A stretch of 64,000 nucleotides of DNA from NCBI GenBank assembly GCA_049325595.1, contig JBMOLF010000015.1, forward strand, positions 74,479 to 138,478, in the 5' to 3' direction. Shown here piece by piece: positions 7,385 through 53,585 of this stretch. This stretch comes from Candidatus Babelota bacterium (GTDB lineage: Bacteria; Babelota; Babeliae; Babelales; Vermiphilaceae). The notes beneath the pieces are model-generated. The model searched no databases. It was not told where the DNA came from and saw only the letters and a list, made by a program, of their open reading frames with translations. Within the stretch, counting starts at the first letter, position 1. Each line of letters starts with the position of its first letter. A program made the position numbers and the translations under genes.

Positions 7385-7801
7385 CTATTTACTCTTTTTG
7401 CGAGCATGAATAGCTTTTGATGTTGGTGAAGAAGTAGGTTGTTTTTTAAGTGGGCTTTTCTTAATAGGAGTGGTAATAGCTACCGTTACACTTGCTTTGG
7501 TTGTTGATCGTTTTTTTGGAGCAACCGTTATGGTTATTGCTTGGCCTAAAATATTTAAAAAGCGAAAAAGCCTTTCAAGAGAAAATCCTGATAATTTCCC
7601 TTTACTCAGCGCAGAAATTTTTGGTTGATCAATAGAAAGCAGTTCAGCTGCTGCTGCTTGCGTAAGGCCTTGTTGCTTGATTAAAGTATTGATTTGTCGG
7701 GCAAGCTCTGCCTTAGCAAGACGTTCTTCTGGATTTGCAACACCAAGATCAGCAAATACATTTCCTGAACTTACTTCATAATCATTAGTATGTTTTTTCA
7801 T
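7385..7801 (-). CDS. higA: XRE-family HTH antitoxin (HigA-like) with Lys/Ser/Thr-rich tail
   Basis: HTH core RQINTLIKQQGLTQAAAAELLSIDQPKISALSKGKL. Starts 4 nt downstream of the toxin gene. Confidence 0.7.
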   Translation of the reverse strand: MKKHTNDYEVSSGNVFADLGVANPEERLAKAELARQINTLIKQQGLTQAAAAELLSIDQPKISALSKGKLSGFSLERLFRFLNILGQAITITVAPKKRSTTKASVTVAITTPIKKSPLKKQPTSSPTSKAIHARKKSK

Positions 7802-7805
7802 GGCC

Positions 7806-8168
7806 TTACTTCTTCTTAAATTTTTCTTTATAAATTTCTTCAGCTAATTTCAATCTACTTTTTATAAGCTCTATGTCTTGTTGTGGTGTTTTAATGCCCT
7901 GCTTTGATTTCTTTTGAAAAGCATGAAGCACAAACACTACTTCAGGCATGGTAACCGTGTACACTACCCGATAGGTTCCAGCAGCATCAGAATCTTTAAT
8001 TTCAATAACACCAGCACTACCAAATCCTTTAAGAACTTTTGCATGTTCAGGCATTTGACCCTTTTGAGCAAGGTATAACCCATAGCCCATGGAGTCTATC
8101 ACCTCATCAGGGAGATCTTGTAAATCTTTTTTGCTTGAGCCAATCCAGATCAGTTCTTTGTGTTTCAT
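7806..8168 (-). CDS. higB: RelE/ParE-superfamily toxin, phage Gp49/HigB-like
   Basis: 120 aa. Pattern WIGSSKKDL..LP...GYGLYLAQKG..P...K.L.GFG..GV.EI......GTYRVVYTV....V.VLHAFQKKS fits Gp49-like HigB toxins. Toxin-first gene order as in higBA. Confidence 0.7.
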   Translation of the reverse strand: MKHKELIWIGSSKKDLQDLPDEVIDSMGYGLYLAQKGQMPEHAKVLKGFGSAGVIEIKDSDAAGTYRVVYTVTMPEVVFVLHAFQKKSKQGIKTPQQDIELIKSRLKLAEEIYKEKFKKK

Positions 8169-24012: not shown

Positions 24013-24565
24013 TCTAGAGGTTAATTCCTCGCGGCTTGCCGCGGGACAAAAGTCCTTATAAACTGGAGTTATGAGTCGCTACATACATAAAAGTCATAAC
24101 GTATCAGTACTAATGTATCATATAGTTTGTCCCGCGAAATACCGGAAAGCAGTATTTAACGAAGAGATAGATAAAATCTTAAAGTTAGTTTGCTTAGAAA
24201 TTGAACTGAGATATGAGATAGAGTTCCTAGAAATAGGAACGGACCGAGATCATGTACATTTTCTTGTGCAATCAGTACCAACGTATAGTCCAACAGAAAT
24301 AGTAAAGAAAATAAAGAGCATCACAGCGAGAGAAATTTTCAAGAGAGCTCCCTATGTTAAAAAAGAATTATGGGGAGGCGAATTTTGGTCGAGTGGATAT
24401 TATATTAGTACTGTTGGTAAACATGGAAGCGAGAAACGAGTAGCTGCATATGTTAAAAATCAAGGTCAAGAATATAATTTGTTGCACAAACAAGATCCTA
24501 AAAAATTCGGACAGATGTTTTTCCTATAAATAGTTTTGATACCTCGCTGCTTGCTGCGAGGTTAT
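24013..24565 (+). mobile_element. IS200/IS605-family element (tnpA only)
   Basis: tnpA is flanked by subterminal hairpins: cctcgcgg-cttg-ccgcggg (24026-24044) and acctcgc-tgcttgct-gcgaggt (24541-24562). Exact ends not determined. Confidence 0.75.
24071..24529 (+). CDS. tnpA: IS200/IS605 family Y1 (HUH) transposase TnpA
   Basis: 152 aa. YHIVCPAKYRK, HUH motif DHVHFLV and YVKNQG are typical of IS200 TnpA. Confidence 0.92.
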   Translation: MSRYIHKSHNVSVLMYHIVCPAKYRKAVFNEEIDKILKLVCLEIELRYEIEFLEIGTDRDHVHFLVQSVPTYSPTEIVKKIKSITAREIFKRAPYVKKELWGGEFWSSGYYISTVGKHGSEKRVAAYVKNQGQEYNLLHKQDPKKFGQMFFL

Positions 24566-25008: not shown

Positions 25009-25665
25009 ATGAAAAAACAAACAATATTGTTATTAATAGGTTTATCTTTGATAAATTCTATTGGTGCAAGTCATGAATCATCTGATATAAAAAATGATTG
25101 GCTTCCACCACTAAAAACCAAATTTGAAGAGCTATCTCAAGGTTGTAATCCGTATGAACGACTCTGTTTTACCCCAGAAAAGATTAGAGATTTAGAATTT
25201 GTTTTTAAAACTTCTCCTCGACGGGCACAAAATGTTGTTGAACAATTAAAAAATAAGAGCGAATCGCAATTTACTCTTTTCTTTGGTCGTAGTGGAACCG
25301 GCAAAACTGATATGGCGCAAGCTATAGCTTATAAAATGATGAAAGAAGGATGGTCTACTCATTTTATTCCAAGCATGTATTTAGTAACAACCAGTGATGC
25401 TCGAACCTTAGAAAACTTAAAAAAGCAACTTGAATACATTACTACTCATAATAATAAAGTACTCATTATAATTGATGATATAGATGGATTATTTGATAGT
25501 TGTTCTGATAGCAAACTATTAGTTGAATATTTTAATCATTTTCTTGATGTTAATCAGAATAATCCTAATATACATGTTATTGCTACCCTATCAGAGCAAG
25601 GTAGATTACCTCAAAAACTTGAACAAAAAATTGGTCACCGCAGAATAAGATTTAATTCTTTTTAA
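25009..25665 (+). CDS. AAA+-type P-loop ATPase domain protein with N-terminal signal peptide
   Basis: Signal-like MKKQTILLLIGLSLINSIGA, Walker A GRSGTGKT and Walker B VLIIIDDIDG. Only 218 aa. Confidence 0.55.
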   Translation: MKKQTILLLIGLSLINSIGASHESSDIKNDWLPPLKTKFEELSQGCNPYERLCFTPEKIRDLEFVFKTSPRRAQNVVEQLKNKSESQFTLFFGRSGTGKTDMAQAIAYKMMKEGWSTHFIPSMYLVTTSDARTLENLKKQLEYITTHNNKVLIIIDDIDGLFDSCSDSKLLVEYFNHFLDVNQNNPNIHVIATLSEQGRLPQKLEQKIGHRRIRFNSF

Positions 25666-25723: not shown

Positions 25724-26545
25724 TTATTCAACAAAATGTAACTTACCATCTTTATAACTACCGCGCTCACGCATGAGCAATTTTAACTTTTCAACGGCAT
25801 CGCTATAACCACCAACTTGATCTATAAGCCCTAATTGTAATGCTTGCTCACCGGTAAACTCTTTTGCATCGGCCCAGTCAGATACATTTTCTATTTTTAG
25901 ATTTCGAAACTGTGCAACTCGAGCAACAAAATTTTTATAACAATTGTCTACGTGTTCTTGATAAAAGGCGCGGACTTCGTCTTTCATGATAGGGGTATCT
26001 TCGTTTCGTGCTATTTTGTATTTTCCTGCATGAACAGTATCATAGATTATATCTCCATTTATGCCGTTGCTGTTTTTCTGTTTCATATTATTTATTTTTT
26101 TGTTTGACCACAATACACCAATACTTCCTATTGTACTCATAGAAGGGGCAATGATATTACTTGTTGCAGATGCTACTAAATAAGCACCTGAATTGCACAT
26201 GCTTGCTACTAGTGTAACAATCGGTTTTGTTTTATTGAGCATCTCTATTTCGCGTGAGATGAGCTCCGATAGTCCACTACTTCCACCATTAGAATTAATT
26301 ACGAGTAATATACCCTTAATTGAATCTTTTTCTGCAAATTCAATAATTTTTTTAATTAGTTTTTCAGTTTCTTCATTATTAATCTGATTGGTAAGTTTTA
26401 AAATCCCAATTTGATTTTGGGCTGGTACGTGTTGCGCTTTTTTTACTAAAAATTTACTGAGCAAAGGGATGTTAAGAGCTTTAGCTGACAAAATAATATT
26501 GCATGCAATAAACAAGAGTAAGGTTTTTGTATAACTGATTTTCAT
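25724..26545 (-). CDS. sppA: signal peptide peptidase SppA (36K type, S49)
   Basis: 273 aa. INSNGGSSG, CNSGAYLVASATSNIIAPSMSTIGSIGV and GLIDQVGG are typical of S49 SppA. Confidence 0.82.
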   Translation of the reverse strand: MKISYTKTLLLFIACNIILSAKALNIPLLSKFLVKKAQHVPAQNQIGILKLTNQINNEETEKLIKKIIEFAEKDSIKGILLVINSNGGSSGLSELISREIEMLNKTKPIVTLVASMCNSGAYLVASATSNIIAPSMSTIGSIGVLWSNKKINNMKQKNSNGINGDIIYDTVHAGKYKIARNEDTPIMKDEVRAFYQEHVDNCYKNFVARVAQFRNLKIENVSDWADAKEFTGEQALQLGLIDQVGGYSDAVEKLKLLMRERGSYKDGKLHFVE

Positions 26546-26760
26546 AAAGATATCCTTTGTATAATTTCACCGATAAACAAGTATAACTTTTTTAAAAAAA
26601 ACAGGAATTTAATATAGTATTTTTAATTGAGAGAAATGCTATAGGAAATTAAGAGGCTTATCTTAGCCTGCTCAAGTAATTCTCAATGGCATATTTTTAA
26701 CAAATATATCTAAAAATGGTTTATATTAGTTTTGACTATAATATACGGGAGTTTGCGCTT

Positions 26761-27510
26761 ATGAACCCAACTAAATTATTGTATATGGATGATTTTAACC
26801 AACTGTATTGCACGGCCCGCGTTGAAAGCGTTTTTTCAGAAAATGGCAAAGACATCGTTATTCTTGATCAGACCGTGTTTTATCCACAGGGTGGTGGTCA
26901 ACCATACGACAAAGGTATTATTAAATCTAATAATGGCGAATTTGTTGTTGAAGAAGTCCGATTTGGAGAAGGCATGGTAAAACATATTGGCTTTTTTAGA
27001 CACGGTATGTTTCCCGCATTTGGCAAGGGGAGGTTTATGCCAGGTGAAATAGTTGAATGTATTGTAGAGCAGGATCGTCGTGTACTTAATACGCGCTTGC
27101 ATTCTGCTGGTCATTTGATTGATTTAGCAGTACAAGAATTAAATTTACCGTGGGTGCCAGCAAAAGGATTCCATTTTCCTGAGGGGCCGTATGTTGAGTA
27201 TGTAGTGGAATCTACTAACTTTGATAAAGAAAAAACAAAAGAGGACATTGAGGTTATTTGTAATCGATTAATTAATGAAAATATGCAAACTTCACTCCTC
27301 TTTATGAATAAAGAAGATATGAAATCGGTGTGCAAAAATGTTCCGGCTTTTATTCCTGAGAATAAGCCAGCGCGCGTTGTGATGTATGGCAAAGTTGGTA
27401 TTCCCTGTGGTGGCACTCATGTAAAAAATAGTGCTGATATAAAACATATGGGCATACGAAAAATTAAAGTTGAAGGTAATCATGTTAAAGTGGCTTATGA
27501 GATAGCCTGA
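26761..27510 (+). CDS. alanyl/threonyl-tRNA synthetase editing-domain protein (AlaX-like)
   Basis: tRNA_SAD zinc motifs H-x3-H (HSAGHLID) and C-x3-H (CGGTHV). FYPQGGGQPYD is an N-domain as in AlaX-M. The ATG at 26761 is preferred over 26716. Confidence 0.75.
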   Translation: MNPTKLLYMDDFNQLYCTARVESVFSENGKDIVILDQTVFYPQGGGQPYDKGIIKSNNGEFVVEEVRFGEGMVKHIGFFRHGMFPAFGKGRFMPGEIVECIVEQDRRVLNTRLHSAGHLIDLAVQELNLPWVPAKGFHFPEGPYVEYVVESTNFDKEKTKEDIEVICNRLINENMQTSLLFMNKEDMKSVCKNVPAFIPENKPARVVMYGKVGIPCGGTHVKNSADIKHMGIRKIKVEGNHVKVAYEIA

Positions 27511-27519
27511 AGGAAATTA

Positions 27520-27897
27520 ATGCTTAAAAAAATAATTGTCGTTTTGATAGCGCTCTATAGTGGCACCTATGCAATGGATAATACTATTGAACCCGCAATT
27601 GCTGCCCGTGCTCATTGGATAGGAAATGAAATTGGTTTTGTAATTTTTAGATCAATTATGAATGCTCATGGTCAATCAAAAGGAATACTAAGCGACACAG
27701 ATAAAAAGCCTTTAGCAGAATTCGATGATACAACGCAAACAGTAACAACTTATTTTTTACACAATAATAATCAACAGAAGTTTATATTAGAGCAGGATAA
27801 ATTTATTACCTTTTTAAATGATGAAAATCTACTGGAAAAAGCAAAAGCGTATAAAAGATTGCAACGTAATCTTTCGATTAAGTGTACTATTCTTTAA
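27520..27897 (+). CDS. small secreted paralog ending in CaaX box (CTIL)
   Basis: 125 aa with a signal peptide ending YAM|D. C-terminus KRLQRNLSIKCTIL-stop. Paralogous to 27937-28338 and 29734-30108. Confidence 0.6.
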   Translation: MLKKIIVVLIALYSGTYAMDNTIEPAIAARAHWIGNEIGFVIFRSIMNAHGQSKGILSDTDKKPLAEFDDTTQTVTTYFLHNNNQQKFILEQDKFITFLNDENLLEKAKAYKRLQRNLSIKCTIL

Positions 27898-27936
27898 ATA
27901 AAAAAATTATTTTATGTAAATTTAATAAGGAGTTTT

Positions 27937-28338
27937 ATGAAAAGATTTTTACTTACTCTTTTAATGGCAGTTCCTCTTTGCGCAATGGAACAAGAGTTGA
28001 CTGAACATGAGATTAGCCAAGATGATTTAATCGAAGCTCGTATACGTTGGGCGGGTTCTGAATCAAGAATTCGTCAACTTATGTTTGAAGCAAAAAATTA
28101 TGCTAAAGAAGTACCCTGCCAATATATATGTCAAGGCAAAGGGCATATAGCTGATTTTGATGGAAAAAACCAAACAGTGATAACTTATATTGCTAAAGAT
28201 GATAAACAAACGAGTATCGTACAAAGCTATGATGATTTTATTGCTTTTATAAATAATCAAGAATTATATGAGAAAGCGCGCGAAAAATATCTTCAATTGC
28301 ATCCGCCAGTAAACCGTAAGCGGTGTGCAATTTTATAA
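27937..28338 (+). CDS. small secreted paralog ending in CaaX box (CAIL)
   Basis: 133 aa with a signal peptide ending CAM|E. C-terminus PPVNRKRCAIL-stop. Shares the R.RW.G.E, QTV.TY and FI.F.N...L.EKA blocks. Confidence 0.6.
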   Translation: MKRFLLTLLMAVPLCAMEQELTEHEISQDDLIEARIRWAGSESRIRQLMFEAKNYAKEVPCQYICQGKGHIADFDGKNQTVITYIAKDDKQTSIVQSYDDFIAFINNQELYEKAREKYLQLHPPVNRKRCAIL

Positions 28339-28397
28339 GTAATTTAAGATTGTATTTTTAAATAAATGTGCCATACTAGTTGATTATGGAGGTTATT

Positions 28398-29558
28398 ATG
28401 GCACAATTATTTTATTCATTTATTCTTATTTTTTTATGCATTACTTGTCCAATTAATGCTATGTTTACAGTAGCACGACGAATAGTGCCTTTGATAGCTA
28501 TTAAATCTGCCCAATCATTACAGAAAAATTCAATTTTTATTCAAAAAAATACCAAAAATTACAAGCCATTATTTAAAACTGTTCAAGCTGAACAAAATAT
28601 ACCAATGACACAAAATCGCTTGTACAGTTGGTTTAGTTGGACAAAAACTGATGATCGAAGCAAAAAGGCTGAAGAAAATATTAAAAACCTATTAAAAAAT
28701 TCACGCAATACATTGCTCAAAACCAGTGATACTACTTTTGATGAATTCTTAAAAAACGTTGCTACTATTAATTATCAAAGTGATAAATTGGCTTCTCAAG
28801 AACTTGTATTTGAAATTATCAAAGCTACTGGCTACCAATCTAATAGCATTATAGCGCCCTGGTTTTATAACGATAACGATATTGCGCAAGAATTAATAAT
28901 GGGTGTTGATCGCCAAAAAAGATTAGCACAAGTTTTGCTTAATAAAAAAATTAAGCTTGATAGCATCGTAGTAAATAATCAATCATTGTTATTATACGCA
29001 ATTAGCCAGCTTAATATTGGCTTTGTTCAGATGATCATGCAAACAGAGTTTAAACACTCAATTGATGTAGCCACTGCAATTTATTATTTAGCGTCTGAAT
29101 TTGCCAAATTAGAAGATAAAAATAATTGGCTGTGTTCTTATAATACCGCTGGCCTCATAACGCGTGATTATCATCGAGCGCGCGCTTATATTATAAAAAT
29201 GATGGCGCACATTTTACAGCCAGAGGAATTACCAAAATTTAATTACAACGGGCCTACTTCTGATAACGTTAGAAAAAGTCAAAATAACCAAAAAAATAAT
29301 ACCGAACAAAAAACAGAAAAAAAGAGATCAACACCATATAGCATAGATGAGTTTTATCAGTTCGCCTTACAGCATGAACGAGTACCAGAATTAATTTTAG
29401 GCATAGAAGCATTAGCAAATCAGCAAGAAATTAAAAATGCCTATAAAGCATTGATAAGCAAATACCATCCCGATAAATACTTGGATGATGAAAGTAGGCG
29501 AAAAGCGACAATAATTACTCAAATTATTATCAATGCATACAAACATAAATGTTCATAA
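28398..29558 (+). CDS. J-domain (DnaJ-like) protein with N-terminal signal or anchor
   Basis: GGAGG lies 5 nt upstream of the ATG at 28398. C-terminal J domain ILGIEALANQQEIKNAYKALISKYHPDKY with an HPD tripeptide. No Gly/Phe or zinc-finger regions. Confidence 0.7.
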   Translation: MAQLFYSFILIFLCITCPINAMFTVARRIVPLIAIKSAQSLQKNSIFIQKNTKNYKPLFKTVQAEQNIPMTQNRLYSWFSWTKTDDRSKKAEENIKNLLKNSRNTLLKTSDTTFDEFLKNVATINYQSDKLASQELVFEIIKATGYQSNSIIAPWFYNDNDIAQELIMGVDRQKRLAQVLLNKKIKLDSIVVNNQSLLLYAISQLNIGFVQMIMQTEFKHSIDVATAIYYLASEFAKLEDKNNWLCSYNTAGLITRDYHRARAYIIKMMAHILQPEELPKFNYNGPTSDNVRKSQNNQKNNTEQKTEKKRSTPYSIDEFYQFALQHERVPELILGIEALANQQEIKNAYKALISKYHPDKYLDDESRRKATIITQIIINAYKHKCS

Positions 29559-29733
29559 TTGTACATACCCCTGAAATTATTTAATAAAGACATAAATCGG
29601 CAAATTACATGCTTAACTTAGTCTTGCAATTAAAATTTTTATAGAGTAGTAAAATGAGTAAAGTGGTTTAATAGCTAAACTCATTGGACATTGCCCAATC
29701 AATCTTTAGTGTATATCTAAAAAAGGAGTGAGT

Positions 29734-30108
29734 ATGAAAAGATTATGGATTGTTTTTGTAATTGTTGCCAATTCTTACGCAATGGAAACTGAATTAGAAT
29801 ATACCCCCAATCAGATTCAATTGATTACTGCGCGTTTAAGATGGTCTGGCAATGAAGATTTATTTAAGCTTACCAAGCAAGAAGAAAATTGTTTTATCAA
29901 CTCGCGGATAGATAATGAACAACTTGCTTATCTAGATAATAATGCAAAATTTATTACTACTTATTTTAAATATAATGGTAAAACAAAAACAGTTACCCAC
30001 ACGCGTGAAGAACTTAAAAAATTTCTTACCGATCGCCAATTGCTCGCCGAAGTTGCCAAATGTAAAACCACTAAAAAGAATCTTGGACGGTTGTGTACTA
30101 TTCAATAA
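29734..30108 (+). CDS. small secreted paralog ending in CaaX box (CTIQ)
   Basis: GGAG lies 6 nt upstream of the ATG at 29734. Signal peptide ends YAM|E. C-terminus KCKTTKKNLGRLCTIQ-stop. Confidence 0.6.
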   Translation: MKRLWIVFVIVANSYAMETELEYTPNQIQLITARLRWSGNEDLFKLTKQEENCFINSRIDNEQLAYLDNNAKFITTYFKYNGKTKTVTHTREELKKFLTDRQLLAEVAKCKTTKKNLGRLCTIQ

Positions 30109-30278
30109 TATTTAAATTTATAAATAGGTTAATATTTTTTCTTAATCTATCAGTTGCATAAGGTATTAATGAGAGGTGGCAGAACATTGTCATTCAGAAT
30201 CATTTTTCTATCTATTTAAAAATAAAAAAACAGCTACAATTACTGTTTGGTTCTGAATAATAAGACAGGAGAAGCTAC

Positions 30279-30896
30279 ATGTCAATTTTATATGTTGGTA
30301 CCAAATCTGCATCACGACGTATGTTATTAGATCAAGCACAAATTCCTTATACGCTTGTGCAACAAGAAGCAGATGAATCAGTATGTAAATTAAGCGATAA
30401 TTTACAAGAACGAGTTACTGCAATTGCATTACAAAAAATGGATCACGTAATTTTGCCAAAAGGTAAAGATAGCGAACAATGTTTTGTTCTTACCGCTGAT
30501 ACGTTGTCGCAAGATAAAACTGGCGCCATTTCTGGTAAGCCAGAAAATAGACAAGAAGCAATTTCCATGATTAAAGCAGCACGAGATGGTATGTACACGG
30601 GTACTGCATTTTGTTTGGATCGCAAAATATGGAAAGAAAATAGTTGGCATATTGATGAACGTGTCGTTCAATTTGTAGCCGCTGAATATATTTTTAATAT
30701 TCCTGATGAATGGATTGAGATATATTTTGAAAAATCAATTGCACTCAATGCATCAGGTGCCATTGCAATAGAAGATTTTGGTATGCAATTTTTAAAGATA
30801 ATCAATGGATCTTATTCAGGTTTAGTTGGTTTGCCTATGTATGAGCTACGCGAGGCACTTGAGGAATTGAATTTCTTTTCGTTTGTAAAAAAATAA
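30279..30896 (+). CDS. maf: Maf-like nucleoside triphosphate pyrophosphatase
   Basis: 205 aa. GTKSASRRMLL (the SPRR-type motif), ADTL...GKPENRQEA and GAIAIEDFG..F...INGSYSGLVGLP. Confidence 0.82.
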   Translation: MSILYVGTKSASRRMLLDQAQIPYTLVQQEADESVCKLSDNLQERVTAIALQKMDHVILPKGKDSEQCFVLTADTLSQDKTGAISGKPENRQEAISMIKAARDGMYTGTAFCLDRKIWKENSWHIDERVVQFVAAEYIFNIPDEWIEIYFEKSIALNASGAIAIEDFGMQFLKIINGSYSGLVGLPMYELREALEELNFFSFVKK

Positions 30897-30946
30897 TTTT
30901 TGCTATAATGATTCACCAAATAATTTTAAAAACTTATGGAGAATTC

Positions 30947-31432
30947 ATGAAAAAAATTTTATTTGTGATGTTCATTATGATTAATAGCATTAGTGCGCAT
31001 GAAGTCCAGCAAGTAAAAGCTTCGGGAATAACCTATCCTTTATCCTGCCATGCCGTGCAACGTATGAGAGAAAGGGGAATTAATGCAATTAATTTAAGCA
31101 ATTTGTTAGCGCATGGTAAATCGTATGAAAATACCGAAAATACCCAATTAGTTGTTAATACTAATAATGGTTATGGTGCAGTAGTTTCCATAAATGATCG
31201 GGTAATAATAACAGTAATGATCAACATATTTGAAGATAGACTGCAACGAAAATTGCAAAAAGTTAAGCATGCAAATCCAACTATATTAAAGCAAAAAGAT
31301 ATAAAATATTTAAAACACAGTGCGCTGATTCCATCTACTGAAAAAAGCATGAGAAAAAAACTAAAAAAAAGCACGGATTTATTTTTTGATGATGAAAATT
31401 ATCAAAAAAAGTTAAGAAACAAAAGAAAATAA
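30947..31432 (+). CDS. secreted protein with DUF4258-like H..RM.ERGI motif and Lys-rich tail (tentative)
   Basis: GGAG lies upstream of the ATG at 30947, followed by a signal peptide. SCHAVQRMRERGINAINLSNLL resembles the DUF4258 toxin-like motif as remembered. Basic C-terminus. Confidence 0.35.
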   Translation: MKKILFVMFIMINSISAHEVQQVKASGITYPLSCHAVQRMRERGINAINLSNLLAHGKSYENTENTQLVVNTNNGYGAVVSINDRVIITVMINIFEDRLQRKLQKVKHANPTILKQKDIKYLKHSALIPSTEKSMRKKLKKSTDLFFDDENYQKKLRNKRK

Positions 31433-31448
31433 CTTAGTAAAAAGTTTA

Positions 31449-32900
31449 TTAATATACATCATTTTTAACTAAGAACGTTGAAAACTGCCAGATATCATCA
31501 GTAGCTGGCATTTTTTTATCAAAAACTAAGAATTGATTAGGTCTATCAACGGGTTTCCAATTAACTGGTCGTGAAATAAATTCTCCCAGATAAGGTTTTG
31601 CAATAGTTAATATTTGTGTGTGATCGATATCGTCAGGTAAACAAAAACCTTGATTAGGATTAGTAATAGCATAGACAGCAGCGGCAACTATACTAATAGC
31701 AACTTGCAAGGTCGTGCTGTTTTGCCCGGGTATTAATTTTCGTGTTTGTTCGATATCAAGTACACTACCAATCCACCACGAATGGTAGGCATGTCCCATT
31801 AATAAACAGCCAATTTCGTCAGCGCCGCTTGTAATTTCATCATACATAATACGTTTTTTTGGCTGAAGCACAAAATCACGCATGCGAAATTCATACAAAG
31901 AACTCAAAGCTGAGTCGTTAAGACAATAGGCATAATATACGGTAGGGCGATAAATTGCGCGACCTTGTTCCCACACGGTTAATCGCTCTGAAATGCCGTA
32001 TGCTTCTCCATGGCGAATAACCATGCCAATAATAGGACCAGAAGGTACCCAGGAGCGGACAAGAGTATTCATACCCATTGATGATAATAATATTTGATTT
32101 TGTGGGCCATGATTATGAGTGTGTGCTCCTTTAGGCAACATTTTTTCGTGAGTGCCCCAGCCAAGTTCTGCAGGAGCCATTCCTTCTTCGATAAGACCTT
32201 CTATGCTCCAGGTATTTACAAATTCATTAACTTGTTTTGGCTTGTTAATAATTTGTGTATCGCGCTCAGAGATATGGATAACTTTGGTTTGAGTGAGCAA
32301 TGATAATCGAGGAAAATGATTATTTGATAATGCTGCTTCTAACTCTATTTTTTTGTCTGCTTTGTCATCTTTTAATAATTGCTGTGCTAAGTCAATTAAT
32401 GCTTGTTTGGTAAAGTGCGACACAAGACCTGGGTTAGCACCATGATCAACAATAGCCGTTGCGCTTGGTTTAGTCCATGTTGAAATCATCTTTTCTATTT
32501 TCATATGGCGATAGTACAAAGTAAGATTCTCAGGTGGTGTATTTTCTACATCTTGATAGGGTTCCCATTCTTCTATAGAACTGTTGATATACAAAACATT
32601 ATGTTCATAGCACCATTGCAAAAGTGAAATGGTATCAACGTTCCATGAAAGATCAATAAACAGATCACCAGCTTTTAGATGCTGTGATAATATTTCTTGA
32701 TAATTGTCTTTAGTAAGTTTGTTAATAACGTAAGTAATTCCCTGTTCAAGATAATCTTTAAGATAAGATCTATTATCTACAAAATCCATTATCGTAATGT
32801 GCTTAGGATCAATGTTAATGTGCTTAAGTAAAAGAGGTAACGTACAACGAGCCACAGCCCCGAAACCAAGCATAAAAATAGAGCGATCAAATCTTATCAT
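31449..32900 (-). CDS. hss: homospermidine synthase
   Basis: 483 aa. Collinear by eye with bacterial HSS: GFGAVARCTLPLL, HGANPGLVSHFTKQAL, ISERDTQ, NTWSIEGLIEEGMAPAELGWGTHE, YRPTVYYAY, NSTTLQV and a C-terminal WQF. Confidence 0.88.
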   Translation of the reverse strand: MIRFDRSIFMLGFGAVARCTLPLLLKHINIDPKHITIMDFVDNRSYLKDYLEQGITYVINKLTKDNYQEILSQHLKAGDLFIDLSWNVDTISLLQWCYEHNVLYINSSIEEWEPYQDVENTPPENLTLYYRHMKIEKMISTWTKPSATAIVDHGANPGLVSHFTKQALIDLAQQLLKDDKADKKIELEAALSNNHFPRLSLLTQTKVIHISERDTQIINKPKQVNEFVNTWSIEGLIEEGMAPAELGWGTHEKMLPKGAHTHNHGPQNQILLSSMGMNTLVRSWVPSGPIIGMVIRHGEAYGISERLTVWEQGRAIYRPTVYYAYCLNDSALSSLYEFRMRDFVLQPKKRIMYDEITSGADEIGCLLMGHAYHSWWIGSVLDIEQTRKLIPGQNSTTLQVAISIVAAAVYAITNPNQGFCLPDDIDHTQILTIAKPYLGEFISRPVNWKPVDRPNQFLVFDKKMPATDDIWQFSTFLVKNDVY

Positions 32901-33041: not shown

Positions 33042-33512
33042 TTAATGCATTATTTGTTTTTTTGTAGGTTTCCAGCGTTTGAGAAGCTCTTCAAACAATA
33101 ATTGTTGGGCATTTTGATCAGGTTTTTGTTCTGCTTTTGTCGTAGCTTTTTCTACACTAAAACGAACCGTTTCTTGGTCGCATGCAGTAGCATCAATATG
33201 ATCAATAGCGGGCATCAAATTTTGTTTGATTGCTTTTTTTGCAGTATCTTCATTTAAAGCAACGAGCAAGAGTGATTCCATTAAGGTGAAAAATTCTAAA
33301 ATGCTGTGGTGCACTTCTTCAAGCATATCAGACTCGGTGTTTACCTTACTGTATGCTTCAATCTTTTTAATCTCTTCTTTGAGCCCGTTATCAAGTGCTT
33401 TGGACACCAGTTTTTTTAGCTTATCAGTATCATACTGTGAGAGCCAACGGAGAAGACATAAAAGTTCATACGAAATAGTAAATTGGTTTGCGTTATTATT
33501 GTCATTCATCAT
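33042..33512 (-). CDS. hypothetical acidic helical protein, last gene of the hspR-like/htpX transcription unit
   Basis: 156-aa ORF on the same strand, 51 nt after htpX. Followed by hairpin gaggccg-cttttaaa-cggcctc (33001-33022). Confidence 0.45.
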   Translation of the reverse strand: MMNDNNNANQFTISYELLCLLRWLSQYDTDKLKKLVSKALDNGLKEEIKKIEAYSKVNTESDMLEEVHHSILEFFTLMESLLLVALNEDTAKKAIKQNLMPAIDHIDATACDQETVRFSVEKATTKAEQKPDQNAQQLLFEELLKRWKPTKKQIMH

Positions 33513-33563: not shown

Positions 33564-34415
33564 TTATCTTTTTTGCGCCATTAAACGTAAACGTTCAATA
33601 CGTTTGCGTAATGGTGGGTGGGTTGAAAACCACTCGCTTATTGTGGACATTCTAAATGGATGCACAATAAAAAGAGACGATGTTGTCGCTTCAGTTGTTG
33701 TTCCACGTGGAGCAACATGAGTGTGTAATTTTTCAAGAGCGCTTGCTAATGCCATAGGATCGTGGCAAGCATGAGCTCCAGTTTCATCGGCCATATATTC
33801 GCGTGAGCGAGAGATGGCAAGTTGAAGCAATGAAGCAATAAACGGTGTAATAATAGCAAGCACTAAAAGACTTAATGGATTATTGCGTTGTCTGCCGTCT
33901 TGCGATTGGCCGCCCCACATAGCAGAATATTGGAGCATTTGCGCCAAATAACTAATAGTTGTTGCAATTACTACTGCTATGGTAGAAATTAAGGTATCTC
34001 TATTTTTTACATGCGACAATTCATGAGCTACTACGCCCCGTAATTCACGATCATCAAGAATTTGCAAAATACTACTTGTAAAGGCAACTGATGCATTGAT
34101 TGGATTTCTGCCCGTAGCAAATGCATTTGCAGATGGATTATCAATAAGCCATAATTTAGGCATAGGAATGTTCATACTTTTTGATAATTCGCTTACCATT
34201 TGATAAATTGCAGCATATCGTTGTTGATCTAATGGGCGAGCATTGTACATGCGTAATACAATTTTGTCTGAGAAAAAGTAGGCATATCCATTCATGAGTA
34301 ATGAAAAGATAAAGGCAATCATTAATCCTTGTGAACCCCCAATTGCTCTACCTACCAATAATAGTAATCCACTAAGCGTACCAAGTAAGATTACCGTTTT
34401 AAGATTATTATTCAT
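33564..34415 (-). CDS. htpX: M48 zinc metalloprotease HtpX
   Basis: 283 aa with 4 TM segments, HELSHVKNRD and the downstream Glu motif SREYMADETGA. Confidence 0.92.
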   Translation of the reverse strand: MNNNLKTVILLGTLSGLLLLVGRAIGGSQGLMIAFIFSLLMNGYAYFFSDKIVLRMYNARPLDQQRYAAIYQMVSELSKSMNIPMPKLWLIDNPSANAFATGRNPINASVAFTSSILQILDDRELRGVVAHELSHVKNRDTLISTIAVVIATTISYLAQMLQYSAMWGGQSQDGRQRNNPLSLLVLAIITPFIASLLQLAISRSREYMADETGAHACHDPMALASALEKLHTHVAPRGTTTEATTSSLFIVHPFRMSTISEWFSTHPPLRKRIERLRLMAQKR

Positions 34416-34424
34416 TTGACCCCC

Positions 34425-34898
34425 TTATTCATCATATTCAACTTCCCAATTATCAACATCTGACTCAACTGATTGATTTCTATGATTAGGCTTTACTTCT
34501 AATAATTCAGTGATTGGTTTTTCTGGATTATTTTTTTGCTTAATTTTAATTAGTTGTTTTGCCGTTACGCTTGCAGCTTGTTTTGCTAAATGAGCTTCAG
34601 CGTCAAGTTCTTTTTGTGATGACTCAAAAATTTTATTCATATCTTTTTGCATTTTGCTTATTTGACGCTTTAATCGTAGTATCATTTCTACGCCAGCTAA
34701 GTTAATACCCAGTTGATGAGTCAAATAAACTATTTCTTCCAGACGATCTACATCTTCTTCAGAAAATAAACGGGTGTTCCCAGAAGAGCGTTTAGGATTA
34801 ATGAGTCCTTCTTTTTCATACAAACGGATTGTTTGCTGATGGATAGAAAACATTTTTGCTACCGCTGAGATTGAAAAAAAGCCTTTCTTGCGTTTCAT
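34425..34898 (-). CDS. MerR-family heat-shock regulator (HspR-like)
   Basis: N-terminal MerR HTH FSISAVAKMFSIHQQTIRLYEKEGLINPKRSSGNTRLFSEEDVDRL, then a coiled-coil and an acidic tail. Ends 9 nt upstream of htpX. Confidence 0.75.
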   Translation of the reverse strand: MKRKKGFFSISAVAKMFSIHQQTIRLYEKEGLINPKRSSGNTRLFSEEDVDRLEEIVYLTHQLGINLAGVEMILRLKRQISKMQKDMNKIFESSQKELDAEAHLAKQAASVTAKQLIKIKQKNNPEKPITELLEVKPNHRNQSVESDVDNWEVEYDE

Positions 34899-52553: not shown

Positions 52554-53585
52554 TTAATCTAATTTGGGGCACACATTCTTGATAATATTTTCAAGTGACT
52601 TACTAATAACTTCGGCGCTTTGTTTGGTGTATCCACCTGATAATGTCATGACTATGGGAATGTTATTTTTAATCGCAGATTCTATTACCAATTGATCTCG
52701 TATTATAACACCTTGCGCGGTTATGCTCATGCCGCCCAGAGGATCGCCAATTAAAATATCAGTTCCTGCATTGTATATGATAAGTTGTGGTTTGTGATTA
52801 GCAATTGCTTGGTCAACAGCAGTTTTTACTTTTTCTAAATATTCTGCATCTTCTGTTTTCCATTCGAGCGGTATACGGTATTGTACATCAAATTGAGTAA
52901 GATAATCATGGAATGTTGGATAATTATATTTGCCATACGAGTCAATCAACGCTACACGAGGATCGTTTCTTAATAGGGTTGAATTACCATTTCCTTGGTG
53001 AGCATCAAGGTCAATTATGACTACTTTAAGCTCAGGATGATTTTTCCAAAGTTTGTTAATAGCTAAAGGTATGTCAGCAAAGAAGCAAAATCCTTCGCCT
53101 TGATTTGCTTTAGCGTGGTGATATCCGCCAGAAAGGTTAAATGCTAACCCATGTTGCATTGCTAACTCAGCAGCTAAAATAGTTCCTGCTGTTGCATACT
53201 TCATAGGTTCTAATATTTTTTTTCGTAATAAAAAATTTGGCATAATTCGCAATAAGGGTACACCTGCTACTTGTGCAATCACATGAGAGTTTTTTAAGCT
53301 TTCTAAATAGGGTGATTTATGTATGGCAAGTAATTGCTCGTCCGTAATAATAGTTGGTGTATGAATAGCGCTCTTAGAAATAAGATTATTTTTGGTTAAA
53401 TAATTGAATGTTTTGCTGTATTTGTGAGTGTCAAAATAGTGCAAAATTTTTTCAAGCCCAAAAAATGAAATATCATAATTTTTATGATATATAATTTGTG
53501 GATTATATGAAAATGGTGACGAGTAGATATTTATTGCGCAGAAACTTGTTAGCAAAGCTAATAGTACGTATCTTTTTGTTATCAT
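52554..53585 (-). CDS. histone deacetylase-family (arginase/deacetylase fold) protein with signal peptide
   Basis: 343 aa. SGGYHHAKANQGEGFCFFADI and IIDLDAHQGNG are catalytic and zinc motifs. The N-terminal PQIIYHKNYDISF...HYFDTHKY resembles HDAC11-type enzymes. Confidence 0.85.
   Translation of the reverse strand: MITKRYVLLALLTSFCAINIYSSPFSYNPQIIYHKNYDISFFGLEKILHYFDTHKYSKTFNYLTKNNLISKSAIHTPTIITDEQLLAIHKSPYLESLKNSHVIAQVAGVPLLRIMPNFLLRKKILEPMKYATAGTILAAELAMQHGLAFNLSGGYHHAKANQGEGFCFFADIPLAINKLWKNHPELKVVIIDLDAHQGNGNSTLLRNDPRVALIDSYGKYNYPTFHDYLTQFDVQYRIPLEWKTEDAEYLEKVKTAVDQAIANHKPQLIIYNAGTDILIGDPLGGMSITAQGVIIRDQLVIESAIKNNIPIVMTLSGGYTKQSAEVISKSLENIIKNVCPKLD

Follow-up and report, generated by a model that had tools for sequence, protein, structure and literature searches.

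Why should three small genes of a bacterium end in the tetrapeptide by which eukaryotes direct the attachment of prenyl lipids to proteins? We investigated this question in a 64-kb stretch of DNA from a Candidatus Babelota bacterium (64,000 nucleotides of contig JBMOLF010000015.1, hereafter the window; G+C content 30–38%), in which three paralogous genes, p1, p2, and p3, encode products that terminate in a CaaX box, that is, a Cys at position −4 from the C-terminus followed by the residues a1, a2, and X. Obligate intracellular parasitism of amoebae and other protists is the only lifestyle known for the Dependentiae (TM6/Babelota). With a probability of roughly 0.65, we consider p1, p2, and p3 to be Dependentiae effectors that are secreted through the Sec and type II pathways and lipidated by the farnesyltransferase (FTase) or the type I geranylgeranyltransferase (GGTase-I) of the host. 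The three genes, each found as an open reading frame (ORF), and their boxes are located as follows.

27520–27897, forward strand: paralogue p1, 125 amino acids (aa), tail KCTIL, geranylgeranyl-type CaaX (ORF and translation)
27883–27894, forward strand: CaaX box CTIL of p1, with the stop codon at 27895–27897 directly after it
27937–28338, forward strand: paralogue p2, 133 aa, tail NRKRCAIL, geranylgeranyl-type CaaX (ORF and translation)
28324–28335, forward strand: CaaX box CAIL of p2, with the stop codon directly after it
29734–30108, forward strand: paralogue p3, 124 aa from the ATG (126 aa from a GTG), tail LCTIQ, farnesyl-type CaaX
30094–30105, forward strand: CaaX box CTIQ of p3, with the stop codon directly after it

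The C-terminus of p1 (27853–27897) reads KRLQRNLSIKCTIL and then stop (..NLSIKCTIL), that of p2 (28294–28338) reads QLHPPVNRKRCAIL and then stop (..NRKRCAIL), and that of p3 (30064–30108) reads KTTKKNLGRLCTIQ and then stop (..NLGRLCTIQ). The ATG at 29734 (MKRLW..., as in the NCBI record) is the more likely start of p3 than the GTG at 29728, where the ORF opens. An earlier note on this DNA had described three paralogous exported proteins ending in CTIL, CAIL, and CTIQ before a stop, and its coordinates and C-termini were exact. The strong divergence around a conserved Cys that it reported was borne out by our alignment, in which the pairwise identity among p1, p2, and p3 is ~31% and the Cys at −4 is one of 20 invariant columns. 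The shared blocks exist roughly as it described them, but their exact form differs (AR.RW.G.E, ..TTY, and F..F....L); likewise, the basic patch upstream of the Cys is real but moderate, with a net charge of +4 to +6 across 15 residues. The a2 residue is I in all three boxes. The p1 and p3 products are identical to the hypothetical proteins ACOYT8_05045 and ACOYT8_05060, respectively, which are encoded on a 251-kb contig of a Candidatus Dependentiae metagenome-assembled genome.

We counted the Cys at −4 in all stop-to-stop frames of at least 60 aa in the window. It occurred in 5 of 178 frames; three of these are p1, p2, and p3, and the other two are short out-of-frame segments within other genes, so that p1, p2, and p3 are the only real genes of the window with this feature.

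Judged from their sequence, the aaX residues of p1, p2, and p3 fit the specificities of FTase and GGTase-I (aliphatic a2; X = L or F for GGTase-I; X = M, S, Q, A, or C for FTase). Amoebae possess both enzymes, and in Ras proteins a basic patch or an extra Cys beside the CaaX box is the classical "second signal". Boxes seen in p1, p2, or more distant family members are also found in eukaryotic proteins: in yeast, Cdc42 ends in CAIL, Rsr1 in CTIL, and Rho4 in CTIM (PMC11304957). CTIQ belongs, together with CSIQ, CSVQ, CSIV, CFLM, and CLIL, to the training set labelled "Prenylation (positive)" in a yeast screen (PMC9231725, S1 File), and CAIL is predicted to be prenylated and cleaved in yeast model tables.

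To what extent are these tails kept among relatives? The locus was found in four other genomes or metagenome lineages (L011, L001/L002, L008/L009, and L003), the last of which is the complete genome of Noda2021, an isolate replicating in Vermamoeba vermiformis. With the p1 alignment, a related-locus search detected a single genome locus, that of Noda2021, and a single metagenome locus. The genes follow one another in the order S49 peptidase, AlaX-like, p1, (p2), (insert), p3, maf, DUF4258, homospermidine synthase, a 156–157-aa protein, HtpX, and MerR. The L011 proteins are ~90% identical to those of the window. The p1 product is 56% identical to its L001 orthologue and 34% identical to that of Noda2021, and the corresponding values for p3 are 52% and 39%; identity to Noda2021 is higher among the neighbours, at 66% for Maf, 69% for homospermidine synthase, and 86% for HtpX. 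Between the window and Noda2021 the tails NL.IKCTIL (p1) and KNL..LC[TS]IQ (p3) are kept, and in these alignments the tail is the best conserved segment of the fast-evolving p1 and p3 proteins.

All five p1 orthologues end in KCTIL (P0005, P0008, P0009, and P0011 included). The five p3 orthologues end in CTIQ (three, P0004 and P0007 included), CSVQ (P0012), or CSIQ (Noda2021, L003 8384–8782); the only substitutions are S for T at a1 and V for I at a2. The type of lipid depends on the X residue, which does not vary within an orthologue group, being L in p1 and Q in p3. In regards to p2, its close relative P0002 ends in CAIL. The Cys at −4 was found in 10 of 10 close homologues and in both Noda2021 orthologues (BDC34598.1 is a Noda2021 orthologue); the earlier note had named loss of this Cys in orthologues as contrary to its reading, and no such loss was seen. 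A further Cys, 11 residues upstream of the one in the CaaX box, is also present in every p3 orthologue (..AKCK.., ..RLCA.., ..KKCQ.., ..AKCE..) and is a possible candidate for a palmitoylation second signal in the farnesyl-type paralogue.

The wider family was collected with a profile of 10 sequences, which was searched against 1.84 billion cluster representatives and gave 50 family clusters at E ≤ 1e-3. Nearly all members are 105–220 aa long with a signal peptide. Word-indexed searches with a 48-sequence alignment and with an alignment of the clade ending in HDEL (see below) gave few new family members, and P0053, a 1323-aa metalloprotease of the type IX secretion system (E = 2.4e-4), was treated as a spurious match.

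For the last 20 positions of the 50 non-redundant family members, we then determined how often each is a Cys. Cys stands at −4 in 16 of the 50 members, at −6 in six, and at −1, −2, −3, and −5 in none, the overall frequency of Cys across family members being 2.0%. Four of the six members with Cys at −6 are CaaX members with the pattern CxCaaX (CNCSIV twice, CYCFLM, and CLCFFM). Of the 16 members with Cys at −4, 15 have an aliphatic or aromatic a2 and L, Q, M, or V as X. The boxes of distant members (CLIL, CTIM, CFLM, CFFM, CFLQ, and CSIV) are all canonical despite differing sequence. In 15 of 17 CaaX members the 15 residues before the Cys carry a net charge of +3 to +6; among members without the box, the mean for the last 15 residues is +0.9. 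In a core-domain tree the CaaX members occupy at least six separate places, and p2 is placed apart from p1 and p3. The chance of Cys at −4 in 8 of ~35 lineages at a 2% background is ~6e-7 by the binomial distribution (order 1e-6). Whether the box recurred or an ancestral box was kept over >65% divergence, selection is implied either way.

These counts bear on the explanation that the tail is functionless, being either an inherited accident of recently expanded paralogues or the relic of a gene captured from a eukaryote. The genes of the window and their orthologues do share ancestry, so p1, p2, p3, and their orthologues are not independent observations; moreover, p2 is apparently decaying in one lineage (8-aa duplication, CFNP, and loss in L001). 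An accident is nevertheless difficult to reconcile with a tail that is best conserved in proteins of 34–39% identity, beside neighbours of 66–86%, and with differing CaaX boxes in at least six separated branches at so low a chance expectation. Among the 1.84 billion representatives searched there was no homologue that lacked a bacterial-type signal peptide and a bacterial gene context. We regard a functionless tail as very improbable.

What kind of protein carries the tail? Pfam gave no match above threshold for p1, p2, or p3 and no GTPase (P-loop) or GGL domain, NCBIfam gave no match for the family, and the best hit of a PDB sequence profile search was not significant (E = 0.37), in agreement with the earlier statement that no domain is recognisable. 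An AlphaFold2 model built with the 48-sequence alignment had a mean predicted local distance difference test (pLDDT) of 90 and a predicted template modelling (TM) score of 0.74; with the 10-sequence alignment the pLDDT was 78.8. The predicted fold after the signal peptide begins with two helices, continues with an antiparallel sheet of four strands, and ends in two further helices (alpha-alpha-beta4-alpha-alpha), and the last predicted helix would continue into the basic tail. Foldseek searches with two models against PDB gave a best E of ~0.1 with TM scores no higher than 0.51, and the best hit in BFVD was not significant (E = 0.025). YkuJ was considered as a structural relative, and its TM scores (0.36/0.51) were too weak to use. 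The p1, p2, and p3 proteins belong to an undescribed family, and their domain is without known relatives.

The modelled C-terminal segment, which forms a long helix and not an extended free end, is one of the observations that would suit a second alternative, in which the proteins are host-directed effectors with an unprenylated tail that acts by S-palmitoylation only, by binding metal, by covalent capture, or as a basic amphipathic helix on the membrane. Many relatives end in Cys-free basic tails (..QQRKK, ..IKRKNR, ..RLSKK) that are presumably functional, and P0006, with CFNP, retains the Cys and loses the aaX. Against such a role, a2 and X are conserved as tightly as the Cys itself (KCTIL in five orthologues of p1; X = Q in five of five p3 orthologues), which is the signature of prenyltransferase recognition rather than of a lone reactive Cys. 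The family-wide lack of Cys at −1, −2, −3, and −5 likewise speaks against it. We consider a non-prenyl role improbable.

Other family members offer further C-terminal modules. A clade of four (P0051, P0043, P0059, and P0042) has no CaaX box and ends in HDEL, KSEL, KSEL, and TIEL, respectively, after a highly divergent linker; these ends may be K/HDEL-type retrieval signals of the endoplasmic reticulum (ER), HDEL alone being canonical. P0021, P0035, and P0040, which form one clade, end in a ~20-residue hydrophobic, tail-anchor-like segment. In P0024 and P0044 the domain is fused to a C-terminal zf-MYND finger (Pfam 2.8e-09 and 2.6e-06, above threshold), and P0010 and P0013 contain 4–5 tandem copies of the family domain. 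The MYND, HDEL-type, and tail-anchor-like ends make sense in a eukaryotic cell and not in a periplasm. Tentatively, one host-targeting domain might be sent to different protist compartments by swapped eukaryotic C-terminal address tags, a generalisation that we find rather doubtful. The tags would be a geranylgeranyl CaaX box, a farnesyl CaaX box with a Cys or basic patch, HDEL/KSEL, a tail-anchor-like segment, and MYND, all behind a Sec signal peptide. If this were true, Sec- and type II-exported proteins would reach the host cytosol and ER without type III or IV injection and would be processed by the sorting machinery of the host.

The N-termini of p1, p2, and p3 consist of 1–2 basic residues, a hydrophobic stretch of 10–13 residues, and an ..A/M[DE] junction of the signal peptidase I type. 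The putative signal peptide of p1 spans approximately residues 1–18 with the junction ..GTYA/MD, and the junctions of p2 and p3 are ..PLCA/ME and ..NSYA/ME. All three are positive by a crude hydropathy rule, and the pattern is kept in nearly all of the 50 family members. No bacterial lipobox was found, since the junctions (..YA/M[DE], ..CA/ME, ..QA/ME) place no Cys at +1 of the mature protein. Type II alone among secretion systems has been detected in Dependentiae, and no injection systems have been detected; the window itself has no genes of the type II system. In Chromulinavorax 44% of the coding sequences have signal peptides and are regarded as an effector pool, the signal-peptide-bearing ankyrin proteins of Dependentiae are regarded as effectors, and outer-membrane vesicles are noted as an export alternative for Chromulinavorax (PMC6561590). 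By the hydropathy rule, which also flags some proteins wrongly, for example homospermidine synthase with its Rossmann N-terminus, ~30 of the 58 window ORFs of at least 120 aa have signal-peptide-like N-termini, in agreement with the published 44%. Among them are proteins that contain a J, AAA, SET, or histone-deacetylase domain and have no obvious role in a periplasm.

A signal peptide by itself implies only a periplasmic destination. In a third alternative, the C-x-x-x end might serve the bacterium itself, as a signal for sorting, cleavage, attachment, or intermolecular disulfide formation in the periplasm or on the surface. All members have Sec-type signal peptides, no translocation device is encoded in the 64-kb window, and most family members have no Cys tail, all of which would agree with bacterial use. 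A Cys for disulfides or attachment, however, needs neither an exact −4 register nor a constraint on a2 and X (15 of 16), and the boxes equal validated eukaryotic substrates and are accompanied by a second signal like those of Ras, whether a basic patch or a Cys at −6. The sister clades with zf-MYND and HDEL-type ends, sensible only in a eukaryotic cell, also contradict it. Pfam scans of all 58 larger ORFs showed neither a prenyltransferase nor a CPBP/Abi "CAAX protease" gene in the window. The adjoining M48 peptidase (33564–34415, reverse strand) was considered as a Ste24-type CaaX protease and rejected, because it is an ordinary HtpX (NCBIfam 3.8e-100) with a MerR regulator alongside (pair at 33564–34898). 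We consider bacterial use of the tail unlikely.

The reading that we favour, host prenylation of secreted effectors, could proceed in five steps. The Sec machinery would export each protein by its cleavable N-terminal signal peptide. The protein would then be released from the bacterium, most plausibly by type II secretion or alternatively in outer-membrane vesicles, and would enter the host cytosol. There, host GGTase-I would prenylate p1 (CTIL) and p2 (CAIL), and FTase would prenylate p3 (CTIQ); cleavage of -aaX and carboxymethylation would probably follow. The prenyl group and the basic patch, in some relatives together with a second, palmitoylatable Cys, would hold the alpha/beta domain of ~90 residues to host membranes on their cytosolic side. 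Finally, the differing lipids of the paralogues may direct the same domain to different membranes. Action inside a eukaryotic host, which the earlier note had argued from the tails, is supported by the obligate parasitism of Dependentiae and by the syntenic orthologues in the Vermamoeba isolate; prenylation itself is a prediction. Those predictions of the note that computation could examine were all borne out.

Several points weigh against host prenylation of p1, p2, and p3. The secretion route, the arrival in the host cytosol, the lipidation, and the target of the domain are all steps that we infer. A Sec signal peptide alone delivers to the periplasm only, and the outer membrane and any vacuolar membrane remain to be crossed; to our knowledge, no characterised CaaX effector uses the Sec signal-peptide route. 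The signal peptides were assigned only by eye and by the crude hydropathy rule, and the separate places of the CaaX members come from a rough neighbour-joining tree of 82 columns. Approximately two-thirds of the wider family have no CaaX box, and the domain can therefore do without the tail. The p2 gene departs from the pattern. Its more distant orthologue P0006, found on five independent contigs, ends in WCFNP, and CFNP is a non-canonical box; P0006 also contains an 8-residue stretch duplicated internally, and the L001/L002 lineage has no p2. An assembly artefact was rejected as the origin of the CFNP tail, since it recurs on the five contigs and no frameshift restores CAIL. Thus, p2 looks dispensable and in places decaying.

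Other genes of the locus gave further observations. One of them, listed below, lies between p2 and p3.

28380–29558, forward strand: J-domain protein, 392 aa (start uncertain), Pfam DnaJ 1.1e-08 at residues 339–374 with the HPD motif

This protein has a hydrophobic N-terminus, a C-terminal J domain, and no CaaX box, and its gene is present in L011 and absent from L001, L003, and L008. It is probably another secreted host-directed protein, not demonstrably of the same function as p1, p2, and p3; the pairing of a signal peptide with a J domain points to a co-chaperone that is secreted to act on host Hsp70 or BiP. Upstream of p1, the AlaX-like tRNA-editing gene (26716–27510, forward strand) is full length with 264 aa in the window and is reduced to fragments of 75 aa (L001 3009–3236) and 113 aa (L008 1569–1910) in relatives, which looks like gene decay under way at the locus. 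The 156–157-aa protein between homospermidine synthase and the HtpX–MerR pair (33042–33512, reverse strand) has no Pfam or NCBIfam match and is 85–90% identical across three genomes, above Maf and homospermidine synthase. A promoter and terminator scan of 26500–31500 was uninformative, promoter-like sites being fewer than in shuffled sequences.

Elsewhere in the window, a SET-domain protein of 179 aa (13662–14201, forward strand) and a histone-deacetylase-domain protein of 343 aa (52554–53585, reverse strand), both with signal-peptide-like N-termini, are candidate secreted chromatin-directed effectors of the nucleomodulin type. The gene at 25009–25665 (forward strand) encodes a signal peptide and an AAA ATPase domain; a similar protein is encoded upstream of the Noda2021 locus (L003 3765–4871), and the combination recalls a family reported from Babela, signal peptide-AAA(-Ulp1). 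Three glycoside hydrolases encoded in succession, each with a signal peptide (GH3, GH1, and GH1; 36905–41765, reverse strand), are possibly secreted enzymes acting on host glycans. Mobile or selfish elements are represented by an IS200-like transposase (24071–24529, forward strand), an IS4/5-family transposase (9841–10635, reverse strand), and a Gp49/HTH_37 (HigB/HigA-like) toxin-antitoxin pair (7385–8168, reverse strand).

A Cys at −4 was also seen in two unrelated proteins of other loci. A 393-aa signal-peptide protein of Noda2021 (L003 14895–16076) ends in SCTQA, and a 179-aa protein (L005 4421–4960) ends in FCPIF, CPIF being a member of the yeast prenylation-positive list. These ends hint that CaaX tails are possibly present in further Dependentiae proteins.

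The Dependentiae are widespread and almost unstudied, and their host-manipulation proteins are known only as lists of ankyrin-repeat proteins and ORFans. A full-text literature search gave no paper linking Dependentiae, TM6, Babela, Vermiphilus, or Chromulinavorax with CaaX or prenylation. A conserved CaaX box by itself predicts where a protein goes in the host, namely to the cytosolic side of its membranes, and that it depends on host enzymes; with it, three hypothetical proteins become effector candidates open to testing. The tests are feasible because Noda2021 is culturable in Vermamoeba and carries p1 and p3 orthologues. If host prenylation is true, CaaX proteins with Sec signal peptides would be probes of how a bacterium with only Sec and type II secretion reaches the host cytosol. 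The surprise is limited, because host prenylation of bacterial effectors is already established; an in silico survey has put it forward as a paradigm common among pathogens that possess type III–VII systems (PMC2916131).

How do p1, p2, and p3 compare with the systems already described? They resemble AnkB and the Pel proteins (such as PelC and PelE) of Legionella in that an amoeba-adapted intracellular bacterium produces a protein whose C-terminus is a CaaX box of the eukaryotic kind. AnkB and the Pel proteins, which lack Sec signal peptides, are substrates of the Dot/Icm type IV system. In L. pneumophila AnkB the box is CVLC as printed in PMC2916131, and its lipidation by host FTase or GGTase-I fixes the effector to host or vacuolar membranes at their cytosolic face (PMC2916131). 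The Pel proteins are likewise reported to be host-prenylated (PMC13081727). In contrast, p1, p2, and p3 have apparently cleavable signal peptides and contain no F-box, ankyrin repeat, or any Pfam match, and the prenylation that is demonstrated for AnkB is inferred for them.

In regards to Salmonella, SifA and GtgE also possess a C-terminal Cys prenylation motif, and their association with host membranes depends on host prenylation. In SifA, prenylation is combined with a neighbouring acylated Cys. GtgE is reported as a type III secretion system effector with a C-terminal prenylation motif (PMC13423502). The two Salmonella proteins differ from p1, p2, and p3 in their type III delivery, their unrelated folds, their known enzymatic or adaptor domains, and their origin in an animal pathogen. 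The tails of Ras and Rho GTPases share the identical boxes CAIL, CTIL, and CTIM and the combination of a CaaX box with a basic stretch (K-Ras) or with CxC (H-Ras), whereas p1, p2, and p3 have no GTPase domain, consist of an unrelated alpha-alpha-beta4-alpha-alpha body, and are encoded by bacterial genes with signal peptides. Within the same phylum, the ankyrin and other eukaryote-like proteins of Babela massiliensis and Chromulinavorax destructans share the presumed export by Sec and the type II system, but those proteins were recognised by their eukaryote-like domains. Thus, host prenylation of bacterial effectors is already known, and the family, the phylum, and the combination of a signal peptide with a CaaX box are new.

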